Of a DNA stretch of 64,000 bases, positions 13,913 to 58,398 are shown piece after piece (the first letter of the stretch is position 1; each line of letters begins with the position of its first letter). A model generated the notes under the pieces. That model saw nothing but the letters and a program-made list of their open reading frames with translations, was not told the origin of the DNA and ran no database searches. The stretch is from Escherichia coli (GTDB taxonomy: Bacteria > Pseudomonadota > Gammaproteobacteria > Enterobacterales > Enterobacteriaceae), in NCBI GenBank assembly GCA_023061495.1, contig GCA_023061495.1_3643.1, one strand, 5' to 3'. Both the position numbers and the translations under genes were made by a program.

Positions 13913-14728
13913 ATGGCTACGCTTTATAGTGATATATTGATGGACCCACAGACAGGCGATTTGGCGATAGACAAAGGTCTTGAGTTGATAGACTCAAACC
14001 AAGTAAGTCTGCGCCAGCGCCTGTGGATGAGGTTTAATACCTGGAAAGGGAGCTGGTACTTTGACGAGTTGTTTGGCTTCCCTTATATGGACTTTCTCAG
14101 TAAGAAGGTCATGAAGACTGTTCTTGATAACAAGATTATGGAAGTGGCAAGACAAGAGCCGGATGTGCTAAACATCATAAACTTCCAATCTACTATGGAT
14201 CGAAGATCGAGAACATATCAAGCGTTCTTTGAGGTTGTTACCAAGGAGAACGAGATTGTAAGACTTGCTTTCGTAGGTCTTGATCAGTTTACCTATCCAC
14301 AGCCTGATGCTGGGACAACCTCTCTCTGTGATGATGAAGGTTGGATTAAGTGGGCTAATAAACTGTACTACCTGATCAACTTTAGATTGCCTAGAACCGG
14401 GGATGCCACATGGTGGAACCAGTATGCCGGTCCTGAGATGGAAAACCCGATCCCTGTAGGCTCTCTGTTGACTCAGGATAAAGATCTGCTGATGACTGAG
14501 GCAGAACAAACCATTAACCGCAATACCTGGACGCTTGCTCCAGATGAGCGCGAATATTCTGGTGTTATTGCTACATCTAATGATGAGGCTATTGCCAACC
14601 AGTCTGACGTNNNNNNNNNNNNNNNNNNNNNNNNNNNNNNNNNNNNNNNNNNNNNNNNNNNNNNNNNNNNNNNNNNNNNNNNNNNNNNNNNNNNNNNNNN
14701 NNNNGGTCGTGCTATTGATGTTAACTAA
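13913..14728 (+). CDS. putative baseplate wedge protein (gp25/gpW-like N-terminal region); internal part masked by N
   Basis: 271 codons including a 94-nt N-run; N-terminal VSLRQRLWMRFNTWKGSWYFDELFGFPY resembles gp25/W-type baseplate proteins; reading frame preserved across the N-run. Confidence 0.4.
   Translation: MATLYSDILMDPQTGDLAIDKGLELIDSNQVSLRQRLWMRFNTWKGSWYFDELFGFPYMDFLSKKVMKTVLDNKIMEVARQEPDVLNIINFQSTMDRRSRTYQAFFEVVTKENEIVRLAFVGLDQFTYPQPDAGTTSLCDDEGWIKWANKLYYLINFRLPRTGDATWWNQYAGPEMENPIPVGSLLTQDKDLLMTEAEQTINRNTWTLAPDEREYSGVIATSNDEAIANQSDXXXXXXXXXXXXXXXXXXXXXXXXXXXXXXXXGRAIDVN
14611..14704. other. run of 94 N (masked or unresolved sequence) inside a CDS
   Basis: Literal N characters; flanking ORF remains in frame. 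Confidence 0.95.
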
Positions 14729-24475: not shown

Positions 24476-25131
24476 TGCCAATTGCAATGATTGATAACAT
24501 CGTTGCTTCTGCAAGATCTTCAAGTTATGACTGGAACGCATCCAAGGCAGCTCTGGCTGACAGCCTGAACACTGTTACCACCAGAACTCTGGATAAGATT
24601 TTCGAGGGCAACAAATCTTACAGAAGTCAGCAAGATAGACAAAAGCTTCTCAGATCTTCTGCTGCACCTTGCTCTGTAGTATATGGAAAGACACGCACAT
24701 CTGGATTGCTTGCGTTTTTGGAGCAGGACAGAGACAGAACCCTTCATTGTGCTATTGTTCTTGCCAATCACCCTCTGGAAGGTATAGAAGATATACTTAT
24801 CGACGGTAATCCTATTTCCTCGTATGGAGATTTGGTATCGTGGGAGCTGCATAACGACAGAAAAACCTCTGATCCTTTCATGGGCACACACTGCCCATCG
24901 TGGTCACCGGACATGATAGGTAGAGGGATCAGTTGGCTACGAGTCAGCTTCAGGTTTGACCCTAACAAGTTTCCTTTTGGGTTGCCAAACGTCACACTCG
25001 TCAAGGTTGGTAAAAAATGCNNNNNNNNNNNNNNNNNNNNNNNNNNNNNNNNNNNNNNNNNNNNNNNNNNNNNNNNNNNNNNNNNNNNNNNNNNNNNNNN
25101 NNNNNNNNNNNNNNNNAAAAAAATGCTATGA
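24475..25131 (+). CDS. tail-tip protein; either a separate gene or the N-terminal part of the J-like protein (unresolved because of N-run)
   Basis: RBS GGAGG then ATG 24475; frame-1 ORF runs into the N-run at 25021-25116 and stops four codons after it; the downstream J-like ORF is in another frame. Confidence 0.35.
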   Translation: MPIAMIDNIVASARSSSYDWNASKAALADSLNTVTTRTLDKIFEGNKSYRSQQDRQKLLRSSAAPCSVVYGKTRTSGLLAFLEQDRDRTLHCAIVLANHPLEGIEDILIDGNPISSYGDLVSWELHNDRKTSDPFMGTHCPSWSPDMIGRGISWLRVSFRFDPNKFPFGLPNVTLVKVGKKCXXXXXXXXXXXXXXXXXXXXXXXXXXXXXXXXKKML

Positions 25132-28100
25132 TCCTCGCACCAGTAAAGAGGTGTATACCAATAACGCTGCCTTGGTGATTCTGGACTATTTAAGAACATA
25201 CCTTAAATGTCCTGACGAAACCATCAACTGGGAGTCCTTCAAGGAGGCTGCCAACATATGCGACGAGGCTGTAAGAAACGCAGACGGAACCAGCGAGCGT
25301 CGTTACACCATTAATGGTGAGTTTGACATGGATGAAGCACCAGCGAGTATTATGGCAGAAATGCTGAAAGCTTGTGGTGCAGATCTTAGCTATGTAGCTG
25401 GTAAGTATGGTCTGCTGGTAGGTGCATACTATGGCCCGGCAACAATGACACTGAGTGAGGACTGTGTTTGCGGTGAGGTTAAGATCTATCCGGAAGCCTC
25501 TTTCGACAAGAGATCGAACACAATAACTGGCAGATTCACTAGTCCAACCAAAGGGTATTCTGAAACAGATTTTCCATCAGTGTTTGTCCCAGAGTGGATA
25601 GAGAAGGATGGAGAAAGAAAGATAATTGATATAGATTATCGTTTTGTTACCAGCCCTTATCAAGCTCAGCGTGTTTCTGCAATCTTCTTAAGACGTGCCC
25701 GAGCTGGCAGGATTATTGAAGTAACCTGCAATATGCGAGGTTTTAAATTTAAACCTGGGCGTTACGTTACGATGAATCTTCCAAGTATTGGTATAGTGGG
25801 CCAAGAAATGAGGGTTCTTGAATGGGAGTTCACCAAAAAGGGCGGTGTCAAGGTAAAACTCCGTCAAGATGCTAAAGAGTGGAATGATGCCACAGGGCAA
25901 CTTCCGGATTCTGGAGATGTGGATATTCCGATATCCCCGTCCGGCGTAGCTCAACCGCAAAACTTCAGATACTCTGTTCTTCAAGCTGGGGAAGTAACTC
26001 ATGGTGTTTTGGCTTGGGACAACGTTGGAACTTATGCTCAAAATATTGTGCAGGTAAGAAAGAACGGAGAGATTATTTGGACAGCACAGACAGTTGAGCA
26101 GTTTGTCCGCGTAGAAGGATTGACCAAAGGGTCATACACAGCAACCGTGGTTGCAACATCTTATAAAGGTGGTGTATCTCCAGAAGCTTACTGCGAGTTT
26201 AACATTCAAGCACCTGAAGCTCCTGTTTCTGTAGAAGTTAAGCAGGGATACTTTGCTATCACCTTGATTCCGCACAGCAGGGACTTAGCAAGTGTAAGCA
26301 CCCAGTATGATTTTTGGACATCTGGTATGACAAGGTTGCCGGACACAAGTGATGCAACCGTTACTTCAAAAGCCACCCGTATGGGTGTTGGTTCAACTTG
26401 GACATCTGAAGGTCTGCAGAACGATAAGATTTATTATTGGTATATTCGAACCACAAACGCTTTTGGTAGTTCTCAGTTTGTAGAATGCGCTGCACGCTGC
26501 TACACCTCTATTGAAGATTTGATGCCTCAGATAGATGCTGAATTTAAAAAGACAGAAACTTATAAAGAGTTGATGAGCACTTTAGATTCCTCTATCGAGG
26601 AGGTTGAAAATCGTGTCACAGAACTTAACAGGTACATGGATGGTAGAGTTGACGAGGCTTTTGACCGCATGGAAGGTGAGTTCTCTAGAGTAGACAAGCT
26701 GTATGCTCAGTTGGGGGATAGGGTTGGAATATTCATCCAAGAAACCCACGACAACTTCCAGGACGTTAATGGAACGCTTACCACTCTAGACCAGAAACTG
26801 GTAGCCACTCAGAACAAGTTTGCAGATGATCTTTCTAAAGAAAGTGGTAAGCTGACTTCTCTAATACAGACCACCAACAAAGCTACAACCGATCTGTTAA
26901 ATCAGAAAACTGAAGCTTTGGACGAGAAGATTGTTTCAACAAGGGGTGAATTGGAAGATGCTTTGGCACAGGAAAGCTCTGAGCTGAACTCTCTGATTGT
27001 TTCAACCAATAAAACGACTACAGATCTCCTTAATCGGAAAACCGAGGCTTTAGACAATAAGCTGACAGCAACGAAAGGTGAGTTGACCAACAATCTGCAA
27101 AATGAGAGTGCTAAACTATCATCCTTGATTGAGTCAACCAACAAATCCACCACTGATCTTCTTAATAAGAAAACAGAGGCGTTGGATGAAAAACTGGTTG
27201 CTGCACAGGGCGAGTTGACTGAGCAGATCGGAGATGTTGAAAAAGGCTATCTGGCTGGTGATAAGAGCCTAGAGGGCAAGTTGAATACTCAAAGATCTGA
27301 GTTGGATGCGAGCATTCTGAGCACTAACCAGGCCACTGTGGACTTGCTGAACAGAACTTCTGAGACTCTTGACCAGAAGATTAGCCAGACCAACGCCACA
27401 GTGTCCAAAAACTACACCACGCTTGATGGTAAGATAAACACCGCCAAGTCTGATCTTAATACGTTGATTTCTACCACCAACAAGGCCACAACTGACCTAT
27501 TGAATCAGAAAACGGCAGCTTTGACTGAGCAGTTAACCACTGCTAAAGGGCAGATTACAACCAACACCAATAACATTACCGGGTTGGATAATAAGCTGAC
27601 TCAGACTAAGAAAGAATTGTCTGCGAATATTTCTGAAACTAATAAGTCTACTGTTGACCTTATTAATGGCACAGCGTCAGCTATTCGTCAAGAACTTGCT
27701 GTTGCTAAGCAGGAGATTATTGATGATGTTGGAGATGTGACCGAACTCAGAGCTGCAGTGGCTACAACATCTAAGGCTGTGACCGACTTAGAGGGCAAAG
27801 TAAATGCTCAATGGGGCACAAAAATACAGGTAGACTCCGCAGGGAATAAGTATGTGGCAGGTATCCAGTTAGGCATGGAAGGCTCTGGAGGCCAAGTTCA
27901 GTCATATTTCATGGTTAGCGCAAACAACTTTGCGGTATACAACCCAGGCAATGGAACAGCAACCCTTGCTTTCGCAATCAAGAACAACCAAGCGTTCTTG
28001 AAAGACGCTTTTATAGAGAACGGCACGATCTCTTCTGCCAAGATCGCGCAAGAAATTTCGTCAAACAACTACGATGGCAACGGGTACCACAAATACGGTT

Positions 28101-28726
28101 GGTATATTAACAAGAACGGGCACGCCCAGTTTATGGATGTGTGGGTGAAAGGTAACATCAACGCTAGTGCAGGTAACTTCACAGGGGCAGTTAACGCCAC
28201 CAGTGGTACCTTCCGTGGAGATGTTTATGCCAACAATGGTAGCTTTAGAGGGACCATAGATGCAACAGGAGGTACATTCCGTGGACGTGTAGAAGCTTCC
28301 GTTATCCGTGCTAACCAGTTCGAAGGTGCGATTGTTGCACACAGGACTTACGGAGATTGTGCTCCAGTATATAACTCGCAGCAAAGGGTTTGCCGTTGGA
28401 GGTGGAGATATGTGGACAACGTGCAAGGCCAAGGTAAAAACGTAACATTCTTCTTTAAACTGAACGGTACTCGTGCCAACTCTCAACTAAATGCGTGGAT
28501 AGCTGGTCACCAACTACTTGCTGGCAAGAAGTACGGAAACGATAACGATGGCATGTGTGCAGTTGGGATAACAGGTCTAGGTGAACAAACTATAGACATT
28601 ATTATCGAGATTTACACACCATGGTCAACAGGGAACGTGACAGGCATTACAATATCTTGTCCTACAGTCGTTGTAAGTCGTTCTAACTCAAGTTTCCAAG
28701 GTCCTTGGAATGAGTCTCACGACTAA
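24956..28726 (+). CDS. host-specificity / central tail fibre protein, lambda gpJ-like (true start uncertain, probably within or before the N-run)
   Basis: About 1250 codons; post-mask region and the C-terminal block (YVAGIQLGMEGSGGQVQSYFMVSANNFAVYNPGNGTA...) resemble lambda J as recalled; internal coiled-coil repeat array; UUCG terminator downstream. Confidence 0.55.
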   Translation: MTLTSFLLGCQTSHSSRLVKNXXXXXXXXXXXXXXXXXXXXXXXXXXXXXXXXXKKCYDPRTSKEVYTNNAALVILDYLRTYLKCPDETINWESFKEAANICDEAVRNADGTSERRYTINGEFDMDEAPASIMAEMLKACGADLSYVAGKYGLLVGAYYGPATMTLSEDCVCGEVKIYPEASFDKRSNTITGRFTSPTKGYSETDFPSVFVPEWIEKDGERKIIDIDYRFVTSPYQAQRVSAIFLRRARAGRIIEVTCNMRGFKFKPGRYVTMNLPSIGIVGQEMRVLEWEFTKKGGVKVKLRQDAKEWNDATGQLPDSGDVDIPISPSGVAQPQNFRYSVLQAGEVTHGVLAWDNVGTYAQNIVQVRKNGEIIWTAQTVEQFVRVEGLTKGSYTATVVATSYKGGVSPEAYCEFNIQAPEAPVSVEVKQGYFAITLIPHSRDLASVSTQYDFWTSGMTRLPDTSDATVTSKATRMGVGSTWTSEGLQNDKIYYWYIRTTNAFGSSQFVECAARCYTSIEDLMPQIDAEFKKTETYKELMSTLDSSIEEVENRVTELNRYMDGRVDEAFDRMEGEFSRVDKLYAQLGDRVGIFIQETHDNFQDVNGTLTTLDQKLVATQNKFADDLSKESGKLTSLIQTTNKATTDLLNQKTEALDEKIVSTRGELEDALAQESSELNSLIVSTNKTTTDLLNRKTEALDNKLTATKGELTNNLQNESAKLSSLIESTNKSTTDLLNKKTEALDEKLVAAQGELTEQIGDVEKGYLAGDKSLEGKLNTQRSELDASILSTNQATVDLLNRTSETLDQKISQTNATVSKNYTTLDGKINTAKSDLNTLISTTNKATTDLLNQKTAALTEQLTTAKGQITTNTNNITGLDNKLTQTKKELSANISETNKSTVDLINGTASAIRQELAVAKQEIIDDVGDVTELRAAVATTSKAVTDLEGKVNAQWGTKIQVDSAGNKYVAGIQLGMEGSGGQVQSYFMVSANNFAVYNPGNGTATLAFAIKNNQAFLKDAFIENGTISSAKIAQEISSNNYDGNGYHKYGWYINKNGHAQFMDVWVKGNINASAGNFTGAVNATSGTFRGDVYANNGSFRGTIDATGGTFRGRVEASVIRANQFEGAIVAHRTYGDCAPVYNSQQRVCRWRWRYVDNVQGQGKNVTFFFKLNGTRANSQLNAWIAGHQLLAGKKYGNDNDGMCAVGITGLGEQTIDIIIEIYTPWSTGNVTGITISCPTVVVSRSNSSFQGPWNESHD
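25021..25116. other. run of 96 N (masked or unresolved sequence)
   Basis: Literal N characters; the reading frame changes across this run, unlike the other three N-runs. Confidence 0.95.
26850..27790 (+). repeat. tandem coding repeats (about six degenerate 40-60-aa coiled-coil units) inside the J-like gene
   Basis: Recurring units such as L-x-S-L-I-x-T-T-N-K-x-T-T-D-L-L-N-x-K-T-E-A-L-D-x-K-L visible in the translation. Confidence 0.6.
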
Positions 28727-28734
28727 CAGTAAAG

Positions 28735-28760
28735 CCCCGCTTCGGCGGGGTTTATTTTTA
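28735..28760 (+). terminator. rho-independent terminator with UUCG tetraloop
   Basis: CCCCGC-TTCG-GCGGGG followed by TTTATTTTTA. Confidence 0.7.
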
Positions 28761-28768
28761 TGCTCAGA

Positions 28769-28797
28769 TTGACTATTGTTACAAAATTTGGTAAAAT
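28769..28797 (+). promoter_or_regulatory. sigma70-like promoter with extended -10 (TTGACT, 17 bp, TGgTAAAAT)
   Basis: -35 TTGACT 28769-28774, TG 28789-28790, -10 TAAAAT 28792-28797. Confidence 0.6.
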
Positions 28798-28830
28798 ACC
28801 TTGTAGAGATTTTCATACCGGAGGAGTGAC

Positions 28831-30321
28831 GTGGCTAAGTATGGATTGACAGAGGCTGGTTTCGTTATACCAACCCTAAATGACCTAATCGTTGAAACTA
28901 AGCAAAGCCTGATCCGTGCTTTTGGCGAAAACTTCAACGTACAGAGTAACTCCGTTGCAGATAAGCTGACCACTATCTTCAACGAGCGAGAGTATCAACT
29001 TATTCTTATGGCAGCATCTGTATACGCATCGCAGACGCTGTATGGGGCAGAAGGTATTTACCTGGATGAGCTTCTTGGAAGACAGGGTATTTACCGAAGA
29101 GGCCGTTCTAAATCATCAGGTACCTGCCAGTTGACAATCAACACAACTGTGCCATACAATATGATTTATGATTCCAAAACTTATACGCTGGACAGTGGCA
29201 ACTTTGTTCTTAGCAACGATGTGCAGGTGGCGGGAAATCTTATTGCTCACAGAATAAACGCTCCAGACCTAAGAATTGGGAAATACAACTTTCAAATTAC
29301 CAACCAGACAGACGGAAGTATCAAAACAAAAAGTCTGGTTTTAACAGATAAGGCTCTGGACTCTTCTGATTTGCCAAGCTTTTACGGTGAGATTAAGCAA
29401 TTCATTGTCGATAATACAACCCTGCTGAATGATGATTTAATTCAGATAGATATGTTGACAGGGACGTTGTGGATAGGGTACAATTCGAATCTTGATCAAG
29501 TTGGACTTAATAGCAGGGTAGATTTCAGAGTATCCCCGATTGTAGGGGAAAGAACTATCACCCTAGATGTTATCGCTAACGAGGCTGGTGAGCTGTCAAG
29601 AGAGGCAGAAACCGTGACAACAATGTCACCTACTCCCAGTGGATTTATCAAGCTTACCAACCGAGAAAGATTCAATGAGGGCAGGGATGTTGAGAAAGAC
29701 TCTGAGTATCGCTTAAGAGCTTCCAGCACTAAACAGCTGACATCTAAAGCTACCCGTCCTGCAATTCTTAGCGCTGTAAGCGAGGTGAAAGGTGTTGAGA
29801 AAGTAAGAGTGTTCTCTAACAACACCGATAAAACGGATGCGAAAGGTATACCACCTTATAAGTTTCAAGTGGTGGTGTTTGGTGGTGCAACAGAGGATAT
29901 CTGTCAGGCGCTGTATCAAACCATAGCTTGCACAAACAGAACTTATGGGAATATCTTCTACGATATTACCACATCAGACGGTCAGACTGAAAGGATTTAT
30001 TACTCCAAGGCAAATACCTACCGCCTAGATGTAAGAATTACCTACTCAGGTGCTGCGCTTTCCACAACCGAAAAAGATGCCATTGTAGAGGCTCTTTTGC
30101 AGGTTGTTAACGGACTGGATGTTGCAGATACGTTGTACAATATCCAATTGGTTGGTGCTGCATCAGCTGCTGTGTCAATAGGCAGATTTAACAGACTTGT
30201 GATTCAAGTAAAACCTGTGGGAGCCTCTGATGAAGCTTACACTACAAACGATATTGTTGCAAACATGACTGAGGTGTTTGACCTAGACGAAAGTAATATA
30301 ACTTTCCAACAAACTATTTAA
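28831..30321 (+). CDS. putative baseplate wedge protein (Baseplate_J / gp6-like)
   Basis: GTG start 28831 preceded by GGAGGAG; 496 aa; N-terminal region fits the baseplate J-like pattern as recalled. Confidence 0.5.
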   Translation: MAKYGLTEAGFVIPTLNDLIVETKQSLIRAFGENFNVQSNSVADKLTTIFNEREYQLILMAASVYASQTLYGAEGIYLDELLGRQGIYRRGRSKSSGTCQLTINTTVPYNMIYDSKTYTLDSGNFVLSNDVQVAGNLIAHRINAPDLRIGKYNFQITNQTDGSIKTKSLVLTDKALDSSDLPSFYGEIKQFIVDNTTLLNDDLIQIDMLTGTLWIGYNSNLDQVGLNSRVDFRVSPIVGERTITLDVIANEAGELSREAETVTTMSPTPSGFIKLTNRERFNEGRDVEKDSEYRLRASSTKQLTSKATRPAILSAVSEVKGVEKVRVFSNNTDKTDAKGIPPYKFQVVVFGGATEDICQALYQTIACTNRTYGNIFYDITTSDGQTERIYYSKANTYRLDVRITYSGAALSTTEKDAIVEALLQVVNGLDVADTLYNIQLVGAASAAVSIGRFNRLVIQVKPVGASDEAYTTNDIVANMTEVFDLDESNITFQQTI

Positions 30322-34754: not shown

Positions 34755-35069
34755 GTGGAGTTGGATTTGGCGGCATTGTACGGTATCTGCATGGGTACCG
34801 TTGTCCCGATCTGTGTATGGGCTTTCAACCAGTGGCACACCAAATGGAAAGGCATTTCCAAGAGGTTGGATGAGCTGGAGAAAGACCTTATTTTAGTGAA
34901 AAATAGCATGGTTACAAAAGATAGACTTGATTCCATTATTGAAACCCGGTTAAGTAAGCTAGAGGCTGATATCAACGACCTTAAGCAAGATGTCAGGACA
35001 GATGTCTCCGGTATCAGAGCTGATGTGCAAAAGATTTTACACATGCTTGTAGAGCATAGTAAAAGGTAA
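34755..35069 (+). CDS. small membrane-anchored coiled-coil protein (function unknown)
   Basis: GTG start preceded by AGGAGG; 104 aa; hydrophobic N-terminal segment (LAALYGICMGTVVPICVWAF) then a predicted coiled coil. Confidence 0.4.
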   Translation: MELDLAALYGICMGTVVPICVWAFNQWHTKWKGISKRLDELEKDLILVKNSMVTKDRLDSIIETRLSKLEADINDLKQDVRTDVSGIRADVQKILHMLVEHSKR

Positions 35070-35128: not shown

Positions 35129-35159
35129 AGTCCTTAAGGAATTTTCTCAGGAGAACGTG

Positions 35160-35615
35160 ATGACTAAACCAGTTATCCCTCTTGATATTTGGGCCAATCA
35201 GGATGTTGTGCTTGAAAATACGGGAGAATTGAATAAGTCCCAACCAAAAAAAGAAGAGAGATTGAAAGGTTGGGATATGACACAAAGAGTGGCATGTGAG
35301 GTTGTTAACTTTGAACTTCACATGCTTTCTGCGTGNNNNNNNNNNNNNNNNNNNNNNNNNNNNNNNNNNNNNNNNNNNNNNNNNNNNNNNNNNNNNNNNN
35401 NNNNNNNNNNNNNNNNNNNNNNNNNNNNNNNGGGTGTTGAAGATGTAAGGATAGCAAACCGCTTCAGAACCACCTACAGAGAATCAAGAGTATACCCTGG
35501 GCATGTAATGTGCTCCGGCAATTACGCCTATAAACACCCGTATCAAGGTGACTATTGGACTGGTGCTATTCAAAAATTTGTAAACGGTCAATGGATTACC
35601 ATATCTTATGCTTAA
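35160..35615 (+). CDS. short tail fibre paralogue (middle masked by N)
   Basis: ATG 35160 preceded by CAGGAGA; shares N- and C-terminal motifs (YWTGAIQKFVNGQWITISYA) with the 33104 gene; frame preserved across a 96-nt N-run. Confidence 0.5.
   Translation: MTKPVIPLDIWANQDVVLENTGELNKSQPKKEERLKGWDMTQRVACEVVNFELHMLSAXXXXXXXXXXXXXXXXXXXXXXXXXXXXXXXXXGVEDVRIANRFRTTYRESRVYPGHVMCSGNYAYKHPYQGDYWTGAIQKFVNGQWITISYA
35336..35431. other. run of 96 N (masked or unresolved sequence) inside a CDS
   Basis: Literal N characters; flanking ORF remains in frame. Confidence 0.95.
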
Positions 35616-35624
35616 AGAGGGTAA

Positions 35625-35891
35625 ATGAAATTAACTCAGTTTTTATGGGGGTTGGTTGCGGCATCTGATGACCCTACGAAAGTGTCCCAATCTAAGCTAT
35701 GGTCAAACATAGGCATGGCAGTGATGACTGGGGTGTTTATTCATATGGGGTACAATGATACGCTTCCTGAATGGTATGCGTGGATATACGCACCTTCGGT
35801 AGCTTGCCCCCAGCTTATTAGCAAATTCATCTCGCTCCGGTGGGGTTGCCAGCACCCTGACCACGTTAAAAACGAAGAGCAAAAAGCTTAA
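35625..35891 (+). CDS. small hydrophobic protein (holin-like candidate, speculative)
   Basis: 88 aa, RBS AGAGGG; two hydrophobic segments (LTQFLWGLVAA; WSNIGMAVMTGVFIHMGY). Confidence 0.35.
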   Translation: MKLTQFLWGLVAASDDPTKVSQSKLWSNIGMAVMTGVFIHMGYNDTLPEWYAWIYAPSVACPQLISKFISLRWGCQHPDHVKNEEQKA

Positions 35892-40600: not shown

Positions 40601-43430
40601 GATAATCCCTGGTCCTGAAACTCTGGGCAATGCCGTTGACCCTTATATCGTCATGACCGTGCTGAGATCAAACATGGATGGGACATCCATGTCTATGCAA
40701 GTTCCAGTAACAAACGGGTACAAACGTGTTGTGATGATCATTAAGTGCGACTTAATAGGTAAGCAAGTTCTTGCAGAAAACGGAACCTCAACACATTTAT
40801 TCGAGACTGCTCTGCATTATCAGTTTGCTGATTCACCTTTTGCAGGGGATAAGAGAATATCTGATACAGACAATGCTCGATGCAAGAAATTTATGCTTGG
40901 TGGTGGATGGTGGTGGTATGAATTTGATTTAACAGACAAATTCACCGACACGTCTAAAGTGGTGACAGGGCTTCGTCTAGATCTTGGCGAAAACATGCAC
41001 AAAAGTGTTTGTGATGGCACCTACGGTGACCCAACAATCTACTTAAAGTATGTTTCTTTTGAGCACCCAGAGGATGTCGTTTATGGTCCAAAACTGAGAC
41101 TGTTTGGCAATTGGATTGCTAAAGACAGGGCAGGTATGGGTAAAAAGGTGAGAGGGTTCTTAGTTGATGCAGGAACAGAAGACATGTTGGTTAATGCAGT
41201 GTGGCCTGAATTACCGGGAACTCAGTGGGACAATTCTGCTAAGTCTATAAACTGGTTCAATATCCACAGAGCTATGTGGGCAACTAACTGCTATCTGTGG
41301 AAAGAGTTGAATGACGGCGCTTTCGGGTTTACTGGTGGCAGAAGAATGGCAATCATTTGCTGGACAACGCTGCAGAGATGTTATGACCATGACTACGAGA
41401 TTGGAGGCAGGGCATGGAAAAATATAAGGGATAGAATCATAACTAACTTTGCAGATCCTAACGGTGGCGGGGCGTATGGTTTCGACTGCAGCAGGCTTAT
41501 CCATTTGAACGGATCTTCGGCCTATAAGAAAGAAGGCTACTCTGGGGCCATGATTGAATGGGGCTTGGTAAAAGATTCTCGTGTGTTGATGGGTCAGCAA
41601 CTTGCTGCTGCAATAGGACCGAACGCAGTACAATCTGTTAAACCAGCATGGTTCGATATCCCATTATGGTCCTCTGGAACACCAGGAACTGCTGCAATCA
41701 ACCCTACCACTGGGGATCTGGAAATCTCCTGGGAGGACCTGAAGCAGGTCGGTGGCTGGGATAAGGCAGGGTACCAGGTGCAATGGTGGAGATCTGACGG
41801 ATCATTGGCGGCTGATGAGTTTGTTAAGGACAATTTCTACACCATGTCCTCTGCAAAAGCACAGCAATTGTTTGGTCAGGCCACTCCGTCAACGATCACC
41901 ATGTCCATGTGCTGTAAAGACACCAGGACTGGAGCTCTGGGGCCAAGGGTTGCTAAAGTTTTCTCAGGTATTAAATGGAATCTCCCTGTTCAAAGTGTTT
42001 CATGGAAGCAAATAGGTGATAACAAGCTGCTGGTTACCCCAGCTTGTCAGTTCAGCGCAACTCTTAACGTTGATCCTGCTGTTGCGGCAAACTCAGCTAA
42101 AGCTTCTGACTTCTCTGTGTCTAACACTGCTATGGCAGATGTGAGGAAGATTGACACGCTGAACGCCAGAATTACCTGTAAAAACACTTATGGCACATTC
42201 CAGATCATCAACAACTTCACAGATGCTGATTCTAAGGTAGTGAGGACAGCAAGCCAAACTCTGAGTTTAGGAACTCTGGCCTACGCGGCCCTGATCACTG
42301 AACAGTCGGCAACACTCCAAGGAGGCGGTGTAGGCAAGTCCATTGCAACACCTGTGTGGAAGCCAAATGAGTGGGTTGTGTTTGATTTAACTGTGGACTT
42401 CTCCAGCGATAATAACTGGACATGGGTAAGGAATTNNNNNNNNNNNNNNNNNNNNNNNNNNNNNNNNNNNNNNNNNNNNNNNNNNNNNNNNNNNNNNNNN
42501 NNNNNNNNNNNNNNNNNNNNNNNNNNNNNNNNNTTCTTGTCACAACTGATGGGTGGCCCAAACTCAGTTAGTGATAGCCAAGACTCCACTGACCCGAGTG
42601 TGTTTCAGGTGGGTAAAACTCACCCAGAAACTGGGGCACCGTTGCCTGACAGGAAGTATGCTTTGGTTTGCATCTCTTACGGAAAAGCAGATGTAACCTT
42701 CTCAGGGACACACACATATAACGGCACTTACAACTTCTCTAAAAAGTACAGCCTCAAGGCAGGTAACATTGTAGACGAGGTTGGTGCGTTGTATAATCCA
42801 GGAAACGGGATAGGGATTGTAGGTGGTAAACTGCAGATGCAGGAACCTTCTATTACCCCTTCCAATGTGCCAGGAATCAGAAAGACTTGGGAAAGTAGTA
42901 ATACCAACATTGCAACAGTGGATGCTACCACAGGGCTGGTAACATTTAAAGCTACTGGGAATGTCACTATAAAGTTTGTAGTTACAGATGATGCAGGGCG
43001 CAAAACGTCTTCAACATCTTTTACTGTCAAACAGATGGCACCACAGTGGAGAATGTGGATAGGTACAGCAACAAACGGGGCATATCCTAATCCGGCAGGG
43101 ACTTCTGGTATGAAGACTTTCTCTACAAGCAAGCCGATGGAGTACGGCAGCGGTCCTAAGGTAGGGCAGATGGTGTACTTTGGTGCGTATATTCCTGAAA
43201 TTATAGGGCTTCCGAGAAGTCAGCTTCAGTTGCTGTTTGGGGCTGGTGTTGACGATCTTGCCACTTTCGGGTATAGAGACAACATCGATGCTGCAAGGAG
43301 TTCAGGATGGGTAGGGTTCAGAATGGAGTCTGGAAAGGAAGGCAGGATTCTAGGGACAGCCTCTATAGGTGTTATGTTCCCTGGTGACCAGCAGTATCGT
43401 CTAGAAGCCTACGCAACCTTTTCTCGTTAA
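37695..43430 (+). CDS. giant virion-associated protein (1911 aa) with bacterial Ig-like (Big_2-type) domain; part masked by N
   Basis: Single ORF preserved in frame across a 98-nt N-run; segment PSNVPGIRKTWESSNTNIATVDATTGLVTFKATGNVTIKFVVTDDAGRKTSSTSFTVK resembles Big_2 domains; ends at a bidirectional terminator. Confidence 0.55.
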   Translation: MLPIPLLKLGRHFLDKRGGIKELAVLSYPIDNSDGTSTTVPYVNSLAILFDDGQLNITGYNRFGECRTGDLDTINYPNEAAWNVDHVWRADRAFVIRTFDNQFFYIGCTAGLIGSDAAGGNDVCVREWTPLPEQIVKGLHLDTHPERLIEVMGGINNTVWVIAEAEGTGILNLYGSGNNTYGSLHVDKNQHATPVKIGETSENPETGPWKNPSINCEVHDNSVIFGGPRGFWIAGYDFLRNNSRNDLVWPPVQITRNDLRGIPADEEWKGFMCGPNGAIIATQRMHKPNDQQLVNVFYGQDVWGDDTWRSLNITYTHEVIMARGYGTSGIFFNNGTKQYRGFSRNLCNDIGAQSANNSPRANFIHYQALATAKYVEQRLPVSWTESVYFQGIHREGFLGTFTVVNGKLWWSGIPRGSFAGSNNLFGGRLNSQGFTEVPENWYKNVPVDSWGVDDIFDVNGVSSVSNIYIGDTVKMKLKPQPEGATFIIDKIELVNAAGTVVTDANYQFSANWNHGGANEVVVTQYNRNVNRRGLYSVKITYHDKHGTGRTHTTRTLNWNTIVPAYPSDGKWHTVGRNKQFHVNDTVYFGLNAAQPAVEGDTSYMVRLHRMDAGSVTYDVTQEIYNQRRNTYDNLVQTQALWEFNPNGRGGKMLQVNEQNGTSLTVHEHPNPWPDPGKPNSGARTLKIVSHDVGYFGIRWEATVRYADGTTNNIGITLGGTSEDNSLKIAYTPRGISIDNMDVVRNGYGDVNIKVTLGEHLGGERIIMYAFDHDPRTNGTYADQAWSYLISAPEPNTKEFYYGMKRNVCKKTGTHDWIAICVKDERTAWNEPVNRWFVGIPTRSDKYVEEYIVCMGGTNLNMCWNEDANNKYSDYDYMRDYSCNQWFNQPGYADRQARVNPAIFTDTQVFLTKQANEVQTFKNKYDPNKWFYNCYGAFFWGPGELPNGGSCFEAATYASDRFMGQVKKYKIIPGPETLGNAVDPYIVMTVLRSNMDGTSMSMQVPVTNGYKRVVMIIKCDLIGKQVLAENGTSTHLFETALHYQFADSPFAGDKRISDTDNARCKKFMLGGGWWWYEFDLTDKFTDTSKVVTGLRLDLGENMHKSVCDGTYGDPTIYLKYVSFEHPEDVVYGPKLRLFGNWIAKDRAGMGKKVRGFLVDAGTEDMLVNAVWPELPGTQWDNSAKSINWFNIHRAMWATNCYLWKELNDGAFGFTGGRRMAIICWTTLQRCYDHDYEIGGRAWKNIRDRIITNFADPNGGGAYGFDCSRLIHLNGSSAYKKEGYSGAMIEWGLVKDSRVLMGQQLAAAIGPNAVQSVKPAWFDIPLWSSGTPGTAAINPTTGDLEISWEDLKQVGGWDKAGYQVQWWRSDGSLAADEFVKDNFYTMSSAKAQQLFGQATPSTITMSMCCKDTRTGALGPRVAKVFSGIKWNLPVQSVSWKQIGDNKLLVTPACQFSATLNVDPAVAANSAKASDFSVSNTAMADVRKIDTLNARITCKNTYGTFQIINNFTDADSKVVRTASQTLSLGTLAYAALITEQSATLQGGGVGKSIATPVWKPNEWVVFDLTVDFSSDNNWTWVRNXXXXXXXXXXXXXXXXXXXXXXXXXXXXXXXXXFLSQLMGGPNSVSDSQDSTDPSVFQVGKTHPETGAPLPDRKYALVCISYGKADVTFSGTHTYNGTYNFSKKYSLKAGNIVDEVGALYNPGNGIGIVGGKLQMQEPSITPSNVPGIRKTWESSNTNIATVDATTGLVTFKATGNVTIKFVVTDDAGRKTSSTSFTVKQMAPQWRMWIGTATNGAYPNPAGTSGMKTFSTSKPMEYGSGPKVGQMVYFGAYIPEIIGLPRSQLQLLFGAGVDDLATFGYRDNIDAARSSGWVGFRMESGKEGRILGTASIGVMFPGDQQYRLEAYATFSR
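42436..42533. other. run of 98 N (masked or unresolved sequence) inside a CDS
   Basis: Literal N characters; flanking ORF remains in frame. Confidence 0.95.
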
Positions 43431-54666: not shown

Positions 54667-54692
54667 CCCCGCTTCGGCGGGGATTTTCTATT
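54667..54692 (+). terminator. rho-independent terminator with UUCG tetraloop
   Basis: CCCCGC-TTCG-GCGGGG followed by ATTTTCTATTT; same hairpin as at 28735. Confidence 0.6.
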
Positions 54693-54702
54693 TGGAGTTA
54701 TT

Positions 54703-55203
54703 GTGAAAATTAAAATCTTTGCTATTATTTTGAGCGCATTTTTATCGCTGCCTGTTGTTGCAGCACCAAAACAAAAAGTATATCACACCTGCAAGCCATC
54801 GGATACTAAGGAGAACATTCTGGCATGCAATATCTACAGGGAAGCTAGAGGAGATGGCACGATGGGTATGCTGGCATCTGGGTTTGCCACACTAAACAGG
54901 AAATCTCACCCTAAATACCCAGACACTATAAGAAAGATTGTCTACCAACCTAACCAGTTTTCGTGGACAAACCACGGCAAAACTTTTAAGGTGACAGAAA
55001 AAGATTCATGGGATCACGCTAAAAGTCTTGCAAAGATGCTTCTAAAGGTCTATAATAACAACCATGTTGCATACATGGCTATGGATATAACAGGTGGAGC
55101 AACACACTATCATACAACAAAAGTACGACCGAAATGGGCAAAAAAGATGCAGAGGACAGCTCAATTCGGGAGTCATATCTACTACAAGGAGCGCAATAAA
55201 TGA
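54703..55203 (+). CDS. secreted cell-wall hydrolase (SleB/CwlJ-like Hydrolase_2 domain) with Sec-type signal peptide; endolysin candidate
   Basis: GTG start preceded by GGAG; N-terminal MKIKIFAIILSAFLSLPVVAAP; catalytic-domain motif CNIYREARGDG...ATLNR...PDTIRKIVYQPNQFSW. Confidence 0.6.
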   Translation: MKIKIFAIILSAFLSLPVVAAPKQKVYHTCKPSDTKENILACNIYREARGDGTMGMLASGFATLNRKSHPKYPDTIRKIVYQPNQFSWTNHGKTFKVTEKDSWDHAKSLAKMLLKVYNNNHVAYMAMDITGGATHYHTTKVRPKWAKKMQRTAQFGSHIYYKERNK

Positions 55204-57182
55204 TTGTAAACAGTAATGAAACTAAAGCAGTGCTAACTGGGAATTTGGAGGTCACAAGGGGATCAATTTCTCTGAACAAAGAGACTTTTGGGTTAATCAT
55301 TAAAGGGATTTATGAAGATAAGGTGCTGGCAAGCTGCCGTGAACCAATCTTCAATGCTGTGGACTCCCATGTTGAGTCTGGACGGAGTGATGTACCGATC
55401 ATCATTCACTCCCCTACAGACCTTGAACCATACTTCTTTGTGCAGGACGTTGGATTGGGCATGTCAGAAGAGATGGTCCGCAACACCTTCATGAACTTGG
55501 GGGAATCCACCAAGCGCAACAGTAATGCCTTGGTAGGTAATAAAGGTGTTGGTTCAAAGGCCCCGTTCAGCATGGTAGACACTTTTGATGTGATCAGTGT
55601 GCACAACGGTGTGGAAAGCACATACCTATTGTTCTTGGATCAAGGCATCCCAAATGTCACCAAGATCCGTGAGCGGAAGACTGAAGAGCATAACGGGGTA
55701 AAAGTTCAGTTTCATGTTAAGAAAGAGCATGTTCTGAAATATCGCACTGCTATTGCATCGTGCCTACGCTATGCAAAATTCCCGTTCACCGTCACCGATC
55801 CAATGACGAGCAAGATGCTGGAGGGAGATAAGGTAGAGGCGCAGTACTATTATGAAAAAGATGGTTGGAAGATGACCATCCTGAAGGGCTATACCAGCTC
55901 CGACGAGAGTCGTGTGGTAATGGGCCACCAACCTTACCGTTCTAAGTTCCTGGAAACATTGACAGACTATCCTGCAATCTGTGTAGAGATCCCTATCGGG
56001 GATTGCAATATTAACCCTGGGCGCGAATGGACCATAGAGGGTCACGATGATGGTGGATTCCAAGAGCGTCTGGAGGCTTTTGTCAAAGAGGGTATCCGTC
56101 TTCGTGGGGCAGAAGTTGTTGCGGAATTGGAAACAGCAAAAACATCCTCAGAAGCACGCGAGATGATGAAGAACAGTGGAGTGTTCGGGCACATCTTCGG
56201 TAAGAATTTTATGTGGGAACGATGGGAAGAGACAGGCCTAGGAAATTTGGGAGACTGTGAGATCTTCGCTGGCGGCTTAAATAAAGGCCGCATAGGTTAC
56301 GCTTGTTACGGAAAGGTAGAATTCTTACGGGGAGTCTATTTAGTATTTAACGACGGAGACGGCAAATATAACCGAAATAAGTGTAACTACTTAAGCGAGA
56401 TCACCGGACGCAACGTTTTCTATTGCCGGAACACGGATCTGGTGAAAGAGTTTAAAGAGGCGGCACACCATCCGTTCTTTGCAGATACGGTCAAATTGTT
56501 ATCAGAGCTCCCTCGCCGACCTGCGAAGAAAGGTGAAACAAAAACTCATTATGAGCCAGGCTATTGGGTTAAAAAACTTGAGAAGGATGGTTACTTCCGT
56601 CGTGAGCGTATTACTAAGGCAGAGTTCAAGAAGATTAAGCACTGCATTCCTTATGAGGGTGATATCCAACGTGGAAGTTGTTGGCTGGGGCAGCTGAGTA
56701 ACATCTACCAGCAAAATTATGACCGTGTGCGTGCGGCACTCCAGATTCCTGAAGGGGAAGATCTGTACCTGGTATCAGAATCTCGTCTGCTTTGGACCGA
56801 TCCTGATTGCCAGTATGTTACAGAGAAGAGTGTGGAACATTTGTTGAAAGAGGATGCTTGGAAATTCTTACTGACTCGCGCAGCAAATGAAACTTCATAT
56901 GACAGCCTGTATAGACAATTAGGGAAAGTTATTCCCATGCAAGATTTTGGAAATTATCGGCCACATTTCCACAAGTGGGAAGGTAATACCGCGTGGAAGC
57001 ATAGTGAGCTAAATCATCGTGCCAAAATCTTAATCGCCAACCGAGTCAAATGCGGGAAGGCCTATATTGCAAGATTGGAAAAGAAATATCCACTTTTGAA
57101 GCATGTAGGCTTGAAATATTGGGACACCCCTGCTATGATTGAATACCGTGAACTGATCGATACAAAGAATAACATCAAATAA
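55200..57182 (+). CDS. rIIA: rIIA-like protein with N-terminal GHKL-type ATPase motifs
   Basis: 660 aa; GHKL-like motifs FNAVDSH, VQDVGLGMS, GNKGVGSKAPF; directly upstream of the rIIB-like gene. Confidence 0.55.
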   Translation: MIVNSNETKAVLTGNLEVTRGSISLNKETFGLIIKGIYEDKVLASCREPIFNAVDSHVESGRSDVPIIIHSPTDLEPYFFVQDVGLGMSEEMVRNTFMNLGESTKRNSNALVGNKGVGSKAPFSMVDTFDVISVHNGVESTYLLFLDQGIPNVTKIRERKTEEHNGVKVQFHVKKEHVLKYRTAIASCLRYAKFPFTVTDPMTSKMLEGDKVEAQYYYEKDGWKMTILKGYTSSDESRVVMGHQPYRSKFLETLTDYPAICVEIPIGDCNINPGREWTIEGHDDGGFQERLEAFVKEGIRLRGAEVVAELETAKTSSEAREMMKNSGVFGHIFGKNFMWERWEETGLGNLGDCEIFAGGLNKGRIGYACYGKVEFLRGVYLVFNDGDGKYNRNKCNYLSEITGRNVFYCRNTDLVKEFKEAAHHPFFADTVKLLSELPRRPAKKGETKTHYEPGYWVKKLEKDGYFRRERITKAEFKKIKHCIPYEGDIQRGSCWLGQLSNIYQQNYDRVRAALQIPEGEDLYLVSESRLLWTDPDCQYVTEKSVEHLLKEDAWKFLLTRAANETSYDSLYRQLGKVIPMQDFGNYRPHFHKWEGNTAWKHSELNHRAKILIANRVKCGKAYIARLEKKYPLLKHVGLKYWDTPAMIEYRELIDTKNNIK

Positions 57183-57192
57183 GGAGACCAAG

Positions 57193-58398
57193 ATGATTTT
57201 CATCTACGAACATTTCAAAACCCGTAAAGAAGCACGAGACCGCCGTGCAGAACTTGAGAAGAAAGGTTTCACATGCGCTATTGAGAAAGGTGACACAACC
57301 TGGACACTGGCAGTGGGTGCCCCAGAGGTGTTCGATCCTGACCGTGACAGCGTCTGCTACACCCGTGAGGATTTTGAAACCCGTGAAGAGGCCCGTTTAT
57401 TTCGATATGGGTTGGAAGATAACGGTAAGTACGCCATGATCTTAGACTTAGGCGAAGGTTCCGTTAAACGTTGGGGCGTGGTATACCCACTGTGTGTTGT
57501 TCACGGTGTGGGGTTCACTGGGGTAGCAGTTAAGTCAGAAGAACCTTCGGTAGAAGTCAAAGACCCGGTGCTGGAGGTGGTGAGCAGTGTGTCTCAGCAA
57601 CAGACTCGAAGCATCGAGCCTTTGGTAGTTATTTGCGGAGAACTCCTCCAGATCACCTGTAACGAAGGTATTTTTGAAATTCGCCGTAGCGAAAGTGAGG
57701 AAGTTTACCAGAAAGTCTTCGACCATATCTCTGTTCAGGAATATGACGAGGCAATTGGTGAAATCCTTATCTGGCTGGAACGCAAGAATGAGTTCACTAC
57801 ACTGGCAGACAACCTGATTATGAAAGATGGTAAGCTCTACTACTACGGTGTAGAGATGCGATCTACCATTGCAAAGAAAATTGAGAAAGATTATGCAGAT
57901 GGAACACTGGATGACCGCTATGTGAAATTCCTAGTTCGCCTGTTACGCAATCCGTCTGCAAAATCTGTAAACATGCTCTACGATTTTATGCAGGCAAACG
58001 ACATTCAGATTGCAGAAGATGGTCGAATCATTTGCTACAAAGGGGTTCAGTTTAACGGCGACAAGTGGGTGGATTGGCACAGTGGTAAAGTCCCACAATA
58101 CCAGGGTGCTTTTGTATCCATGCCTCGTAACTTTGTAGAGGATGATCCGGAAGCTGCATGCTCTTATGGCCTGCACTGTGCCAGCAAAGAGTATGCAAAG
58201 AGCTACGGCACTGTGATGACGGTTATGGTTGACCCTGCTGATGTAGTCAGTGTACCTTACCAACACAACAGCGCTAAGTGCCGTGCATGCCGCTACGAAA
58301 TCGTAGTAGCTCCAGAATCGCGCAAAGATGGAGACCCAATCGAGTACGTGATTGACCGCGACGGCAACACTATCGACATTATCTACGAGGAGGCGTAA
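57193..58398 (+). CDS. rIIB: rIIB-like protein
   Basis: 401 aa; C-terminal block (NPSAKSVNMLYDFMQANDIQIAEDG...SMPRNFVEDDPEAACSYGLHCASKEYA...DPADVVSVPYQHNSAKCRACRYEIV) matches the T4 rIIB C-terminal region as recalled from memory. Confidence 0.55.
   Translation: MIFIYEHFKTRKEARDRRAELEKKGFTCAIEKGDTTWTLAVGAPEVFDPDRDSVCYTREDFETREEARLFRYGLEDNGKYAMILDLGEGSVKRWGVVYPLCVVHGVGFTGVAVKSEEPSVEVKDPVLEVVSSVSQQQTRSIEPLVVICGELLQITCNEGIFEIRRSESEEVYQKVFDHISVQEYDEAIGEILIWLERKNEFTTLADNLIMKDGKLYYYGVEMRSTIAKKIEKDYADGTLDDRYVKFLVRLLRNPSAKSVNMLYDFMQANDIQIAEDGRIICYKGVQFNGDKWVDWHSGKVPQYQGAFVSMPRNFVEDDPEAACSYGLHCASKEYAKSYGTVMTVMVDPADVVSVPYQHNSAKCRACRYEIVVAPESRKDGDPIEYVIDRDGNTIDIIYEEA

Follow-up and report, generated by a model that had tools for sequence, protein, structure and literature searches.

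A 64,000-nucleotide stretch of DNA from Escherichia coli (NCBI GenBank assembly GCA_023061495.1, contig GCA_023061495.1_3643.1), referred to here as the window, contained three open reading frames (ORFs) in one direction that occupied exactly positions 54703-58398 (+): a predicted exported cell-wall hydrolase and homologues of rIIA and rIIB. The results make it likely that this cluster joins an accessory exported hydrolase to a counter-defence rII pair within a replication block, with the conventional lysis set lying elsewhere in the phage genome. The specific role proposed for the hydrolase, that of an accessory periplasmic muralytic enzyme, is put forward with much lower confidence than this overall picture. 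The features of the cluster were as follows:

54667..54682, +: GC hairpin CCCCGCTTCGGCGGGG, terminator-like, with ATTTTCTATTT after it; 20 nucleotides 5' of the hydrolase start
54694..54697, +: Shine-Dalgarno sequence GGAG, 5 nucleotides 5' of the GTG start, read from the sequence
54703..54762, +: predicted Sec (signal peptidase I) signal peptide, residues 1-20, MKIKIFAIILSAFLSLPVVA, predicted cut between VVA and AP (hydropathy, -3/-1 rule)
54703..55203, +: predicted exported cell-wall hydrolase, 166 amino acids (aa), Hydrolase_2 / SleB catalytic fold, GTG start
54841-54843, +: predicted catalytic Glu47 codon GAA (alignment with SleB)
55200..57182, +: rIIA homologue, 660 aa, with a GHKL (HATPase_c_3) domain at the N-terminus; start codon overlapping the hydrolase stop (ATGA)
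57193..58398, +: rIIB homologue, 401 aa; rIIB-family match over residues 132-373

The window was assigned to Vequintavirus (rV5-like coliphage). A 5-kb query around the cluster matched 122 phage records at 93-97% DNA identity, almost all of them Escherichia phages of the genus Vequintavirus, and the best match was vB_EcoM_SYGMH1 (97.3%), referred to below as SYGMH1. Vequintaviruses are rV5-like myoviruses with a genome of about 136 kb; the window spans under half of the phage genome, and the lysis genes were read from close relatives. The three genes are ordinary and already annotated. GenBank relatives label them "SleB / cell wall hydrolase", "rIIA" and "rIIB", and the 2013 description of rV5 listed gene 2 as a "cell wall hydrolase" (PF07486) of 166 aa, and rIIA as gene 1 with rIIB adjoining. 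The signal peptide, conservation and toxicity of the hydrolase were reported in 2020, and the function of rII in the genus in 2025.

Family, fold and export signal of the hydrolase

The hydrolase matched Pfam Hydrolase_2 (PF07486) with an E-value of 2.1e-19 and 70.4 bits (cut-off 27) over positions 2-100 of the 100-position profile, and it also matched phrog_938, labelled "endolysin" (E=1.7e-27). A sequence match to the SleB catalytic domain (4F55/4FET) was obtained in the Protein Data Bank at E=2.5e-6, and Glu47 of the phage protein (NIYREARG), nearly invariant in the family alignment, was aligned with the glutamate of the SleB motif YGESRG, which we take to be the catalytic residue. The AlphaFold2 model from an 11-sequence alignment had a predicted local distance difference test score (pLDDT) of 88.4, low over the signal-peptide region, and was used instead of the single-sequence model, which was unusable (pLDDT 47). 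Foldseek superposed the model on Bacillus anthracis SleB (4FET) with E=9e-5, a target-normalised TM-score of 0.78-0.79 and a root-mean-square deviation of 2.7 Å. The SleB equivalog TIGR02869 scored 48.3 bits against a cut-off of 236.5, the match covering the catalytic part alone (profile positions 83-201). Because it lacks a peptidoglycan-binding domain and falls below the TIGR02869 cut-off, the hydrolase is classed here as a member of the family and not as a SleB orthologue.

Comparison with the fully annotated Vequintavirus MaxTheCat showed 15 nucleotide differences in the hydrolase gene, all 15 synonymous; against SYGMH1 there were four differences, three of them synonymous. Since the differences from MaxTheCat are all synonymous, the gene is judged to be under purifying selection. 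Just before the catalytic helix lies a pair of cysteines (Cys30 and Cys42) that is conserved within the closest subfamily, in keeping with an oxidising compartment.

The N-terminus (MKIKIFAIILSAFLSLPVVA followed by AP) contained two lysines, a 17-residue hydrophobic core, a proline at -4 and V-x-A at -3/-1. The core (IFAIILSAFLSLPVVAA) consisted of 59% I/L/F/V and 35% A/S, and the Kyte-Doolittle 19-residue mean of the N-terminus was 2.29. The anchor of a signal-arrest-release (SAR) endolysin is weakly hydrophobic, rich in Gly/Ala/Ser and free of a signal-peptidase site, and the hydrolase N-terminus did not have this character; it appears too hydrophobic for a releasable anchor and has a probable signal-peptidase site between VVA and A. 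Family statistics were taken from an exhaustive HMMER search (a word-indexed homologue search gave 10 proteins and was set aside). Among the 150 best cluster representatives, 129 had the NxYxE motif preceded by at least 20 residues, and an N-terminal hydrophobic segment was found in 121 of these (94%). The N-termini of the homologues from Certrevirus, Justusliebigvirus, a T5-like phage, Seunavirus and Mydovirus were likewise signal-like throughout.

An earlier note on this DNA had described a spore-cortex-type domain in place of a canonical lysozyme, a Sec-type signal, and a position directly upstream of rIIA/rIIB. The profile and fold matches bear out the first; hydropathy, the -3/-1 rule and the hydrophobic segment of the representatives, judged by hand rules, agree with the second; and the third is confirmed by the ATGA overlap of stop and start codons.

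The hydrolase was 99.4% identical to the rV5 protein and matched 1266 phage records, including those of Justusliebigvirus, Phapecoctavirus and T5-like phages and many phages of Pseudomonas, Klebsiella, Vibrio and Stenotrophomonas; phi92-like phages also carry a homologue. The hydrolase need not be linked to rII: Certrevirus, Justusliebigvirus alia and a T5-like phage carry it without rII. The canonical endolysin varies by genus: Vequintavirus has a lambda-R type, KPP-1 a GH19 enzyme, CB7 a T5-endolysin-like peptidase and W70 an M15C peptidase. Phapecoctavirus has a Phage_lysozyme protein plus a Hydrolase_2 protein, and T5-like phages have their own endolysin. As it is found alongside another endolysin, the exported hydrolase turns up repeatedly as a second enzyme acting on the wall. 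The CB7 homologue, CB7_83, was reported to have a signal peptide, to be toxic when expressed in E. coli, and to be kept in all Vequintavirinae genera (PMC7344957). This pattern suggests that the SleB-like enzyme is the constant element in Vequintavirinae and the endolysin the replaceable one, and that the former may have a role that the endolysin does not cover.

Endolysin P28 was considered as a characterised member of the family and rejected; its paper shows a lambda-R-like maltocin enzyme. In the PhageMaP Bas63 and CRISPRi-ART supplements no entry was annotated as a homologue of the hydrolase. This E. coli Vequintavirus sequence is also carried by at least 23 records under the name "Campylobacter phage" (C. 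jejuni host; e.g. MG065655, MG065659 and MG065672); those listed have 93.8% DNA identity and a hydrolase protein identity of 99.4%. They probably reflect a mislabelled host or contamination.

The rII pair and the genomic setting

The rIIA homologue matched phrog_612 (E=1.5e-123) over residues 1-658, its full length, and its HATPase_c_3 domain (PF13589) scored 35 bits (cut-off 25), while rIIB matched phrog_609 (E=1.3e-61). Both were nearly identical to the proteins of the Vequintavirus EdH4 (rIIA 647/660, 98%; rIIB 385/401, 96%). Knock-down of either gene in EdH4, by the published CRISPRi-ART method, had no effect without Rex and reduced plating when the cells expressed lambda RexAB (PMC11879866). 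The rII pair of a different phage, Bas63, is non-essential on laboratory strains and has been linked to countering QatABCD. Because the EdH4 knock-down matters only against RexAB, rIIA and rIIB are not counted as lysis proteins, and by this comparison the pair is a counter-defence module and not lysis machinery. The PHROG and RefSeq labels ("endolysin" for the hydrolase, "lysis inhibitors" for rIIA/rIIB) invite the reading of a lysis cluster, which is wrong for this phage group.

The first ~100 residues of rIIB (57193-57500) fall outside the family match, and residues 8-42 gave a weak SPOR match (PF05036, E=1.4e-3, 19.4 bits; cut-off 21), and a possible second SPOR-like repeat was seen, by eye only, at residues ~58-95; no export signal was evident in the protein. 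One GenBank record names rIIB a "SPOR domain-containing protein".

Upstream of the cluster were a MoxR-type ATPase and a 126-aa acidic protein, and downstream a Dda/PIF1-type helicase; the syntenic region of MaxTheCat continues with a methyltransferase, a primase-helicase and a DNA polymerase. By its gene content the cluster therefore sits in a replication-gene block, not in a late lysis cassette. EdH4 had an identical gene order, with the same hairpin annotated as a transcriptional terminator (-16.3). No good promoter was found between the hairpin (54667-54682) and the hydrolase GTG, and the hydrolase, rIIA, rIIB and helicase genes downstream of the hairpin would require read-through or an unrecognised promoter. 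Low-level synthesis of the hydrolase is expected because its GTG start is weak and a terminator lies directly upstream; we infer that expression is low, occurs through terminator read-through and is coupled to that of rIIA. A literature search for Vequintavirus transcriptomes gave nothing usable.

Lysis genes and candidate partners

No soluble endolysin, holin or spanins were found within the 64-kb window. In MaxTheCat, a gene annotated "endolysin" lies beside the DNA ligase, outside the region equivalent to the window, and encodes a homologue of the lambda R lysozyme (1AM7, E=3.4e-56) without signal or anchor. SYGMH1 also carries a lambda-R-type endolysin next to the DNA ligase, identical to that of MaxTheCat at 150 of 156 positions. 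This endolysin, gp89 in rV5, was present in 80 phage records at 95% identity or more, and in 37 at 99% or more. An i-spanin/o-spanin pair was located immediately 5' of the large terminase in MaxTheCat, and the same pair was present in SYGMH1; the MaxTheCat i-spanin has an N-terminal transmembrane domain (TMD), and the N-terminus of its o-spanin, read by eye, is lipoprotein-signal-like. The 2013 rV5 paper proposed gp129 as a holin candidate. MaxTheCat bas57_0168 (78 aa, two TMDs, highly charged C-terminus) corresponds to gp129 by size and architecture, the rV5 sequence being outside the comparison, and is a predicted holin only. A separate 123-aa gene of MaxTheCat, bas57_0112, is annotated "putative holin".

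Two labels in the SYGMH1 record (L009) were judged to be annotation errors. The o-spanin gene at 25802-26089 is mislabelled "capsid maturation protease", and the gene at 27739-29295, labelled "ATP-dependent helicase", matches the MaxTheCat portal gene in position and length and, from these two features, is probably the portal gene.

The earlier note had also proposed an atypical, possibly holin-independent lysis system. This proposal is unsupported, because relatives including SYGMH1 carry a lambda-R-type endolysin, spanins and a holin (by prediction) elsewhere in the genome, an arrangement of the kind that the note itself had named as refuting it. Its remark that no canonical holin is adjacent held, since no ORF with transmembrane segments stands beside the cluster on the coding strand. 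Its description of small membrane proteins embedded in the fibre cluster stood for the ORF at 34755-35069, which has a TMD, and did not stand for that at 35625-35891, which is weakly hydrophobic only. The former encodes 104 aa with one N-terminal TMD and a charged coiled-coil tail (phrog_5345), and the latter 88 aa with weakly hydrophobic stretches (phrog_1322, "membrane protein"). Both lie between fibre genes, and neither matched any holin family. The window contains four runs of ~95 N (14611-14704, 25021-25116, 35336-35431 and 42436-42533), all inside tail/fibre genes, and one of them interrupts the ORF at 35157-35615.

A small gene for a two-TMD protein follows the hydrolase in sister genera. 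In the Seunavirus 4MG, a 57-aa two-TMD protein with a basic C-terminus (4MG_271, L011:3884-4057) comes directly after the hydrolase and before rIIA, rIIB and the helicase. The Mydovirus KB57 has an unannotated 51-aa gene at the same place (L013:1824-1979) that is clearly homologous to 4MG_271. In Certrevirus a 65-aa two-TMD gene comes right after the hydrolase (phage F5M2A, L006:5528-5725), and its product has been proposed by others as a class II holin (PMC7344957). Vequintavirus has no two-TMD gene there, since the stop codon of its hydrolase gene overlaps the start of rIIA, and a tblastn search of the window and of MaxTheCat, with the two-TMD proteins of Seunavirus and Certrevirus as queries, gave no homologue (best E=0.05-0.4, compositional).

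Two further candidates were rejected. When a hidden small membrane ORF was sought in or beside the hydrolase gene, transmembrane-like segments were found only in an antisense ORF at 55079-55300(-), 73 aa with two such segments, over the hydrolase/rIIA junction. It is open in relatives, and it was judged non-coding because seven of its amino acids change relative to MaxTheCat while the sense frame of the hydrolase part changes only synonymously. The upstream gene for the 126-aa acidic protein was considered as a conserved partner of the hydrolase and discarded; the protein showed no similarity to the products of the upstream genes of Certrevirus, Seunavirus, Mydovirus, Justusliebigvirus or the T5-like phage. 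The rV5 paper names T5.083 as a homologue of this gene.

Role of the hydrolase and comparison with known systems

The hydrolase would be a small peptidoglycan-cleaving enzyme of the SleB fold, of lytic-transglycosylase type, with a single catalytic glutamate. Made in small amounts with a classical Sec signal, it would cross the inner membrane without a holin and be cut by signal peptidase after VVA20. In the periplasm the Cys30-Cys42 disulfide would probably form and glycan strands would be cut, so that the enzyme may pre-weaken or remodel the sacculus as an accessory and not as the main endolysin. Final lysis would be left to a soluble lambda-R-type endolysin, a predicted holin and an Rz/Rz1-type spanin pair encoded outside the window. 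The rIIA/rIIB pair would neutralise abortive infection of the RexAB type, and its adjacency to the hydrolase would reflect inherited synteny and not a functional lysis cassette. More widely, a Sec-exported hydrolase with the SleB fold is retained in several lineages of large virulent phages that infect Gram-negative bacteria, and a normal endolysin is documented as well in at least some of these lineages.

Several points weigh against this account. The canonical endolysin is attributed to the phage of the window from close relatives, and the timing of hydrolase expression is deduced from the gene neighbourhood. Cleavage of the signal peptide is predicted by hand rules only, under which the n-, h- and c-regions and the -3/-1 positions fit a Sec signal. 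The two-TMD protein of the sister genera is holin- or pinholin-like, and there the pair may be a genuine secretory-endolysin module. A literature search for experiments on phage Hydrolase_2 lysins gave nothing usable, and the toxicity was reported as "data not shown" only.

The two-TMD protein of the sister genera would also fit a history in which the SleB-fold enzyme was the ancestral, subfamily-wide secretory endolysin, once triggered by the two-TMD protein. Two parallel routes of wall degradation would then exist, and Vequintavirus would have lost the trigger and would now use the holin of an acquired lambda-R-type system. We regard this history as unlikely. It is rather improbable, too, that the hydrolase is non-lytic and serves to remodel the envelope for a large burst, to interfere with superinfecting or competing phages or to alter envelope signalling, with little part in final lysis. 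The early/middle-type position beside a counter-defence module, the sequence features that point to low expression, and the retention of the enzyme in several large virulent lineages, at least some with another documented endolysin, speak for such a role. Against it stand the toxicity seen on overexpression and a catalytic glutamate and fold of the kind found in active glycan-cleaving enzymes; a lysis-assisting role is equally compatible with these points.

We give little credence to the SleB-like enzyme as the principal endolysin of a Sec-dependent lysis that is holin-independent or pinholin-triggered, as with Lys44 of fOg44 and the SAR endolysins. Such a function would accord with the predicted Sec-type signal, the toxicity of the CB7 homologue (PMC7344957), the status of the enzyme as the sole wall hydrolase conserved across the subfamily where the other endolysin varies, and the small two-TMD gene directly after the hydrolase in three sister genera. 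Vequintaviruses nevertheless keep a conserved lambda-R-type endolysin (37 records at 99% or more), spanins and a predicted class II holin. The two-TMD partner is absent here, as seen from the stop/start overlap and the lack of a homologue in the window or MaxTheCat; the gene lies among replication genes, behind a terminator and with a GTG start; and its strongly hydrophobic N-terminus with a cleavage site is not SAR-like. A virion-associated lysin for DNA injection is very improbable: phage tails often carry wall hydrolases and the PHROG and GenBank labels are generic, but a cleavable export signal, as predicted, is incompatible with virion assembly in the cytoplasm, the rV5 paper does not include the hydrolase in the virion proteins that it names, gene region 1, to which all CB7 virion proteins except CB7_55 map, excludes CB7_83, a spike lysozyme and a gp25-like protein are already encoded in the tail module, and the gene lies outside the structural block.

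The accessory exported hydrolase and the counter-defence rII pair can be compared with four known systems. The hydrolase shares with Bacillus SleB and CwlJ (4F55, 4FET) the fold of the catalytic domain and the aligned catalytic glutamate. It differs in an identity of 21-24% over the structural alignment and in the absence of the N-terminal PG_binding_1 domain; moreover, as the host of the phage lacks a spore cortex, ordinary peptidoglycan must be the substrate. The rII pair resembles T4 rIIA/rIIB in the adjacency of the two genes, in its family matches, in the GHKL domain of rIIA and in its anti-RexAB function, shown for the near-identical EdH4 pair (PMC11879866). It departs from T4 in an identity below 40% (PMC11879866) and in the N-terminal ~130 residues of rIIB, which fall outside the family match.

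The closest counterpart of the hydrolase is rV5 gene 2, with its orthologues CB7_83, CR3_087 and 4MG_270; the rV5 protein has the same 166 aa, Pfam domain and place next to rIIA, with no material difference. The hydrolases of Seunavirus, Mydovirus and Certrevirus carry a C-terminal extension of ~10 residues and are followed by the two-TMD gene, and the Vequintavirus version lacks both. Lys44 of Oenococcus phage fOg44 and the SAR endolysins P1 Lyz and R21 reach the wall through Sec and need no holin hole. The hydrolase of the window is like them in that it is predicted to be a wall hydrolase exported via Sec without a holin hole. It is unlike the SAR endolysins in its strongly hydrophobic N-terminus with a VVA cleavage site in place of a Gly/Ala/Ser-rich releasable anchor, and unlike both in that its gene lies outside a lysis cassette, with no adjacent holin or pinholin, in a phage group whose members have a separate endolysin.

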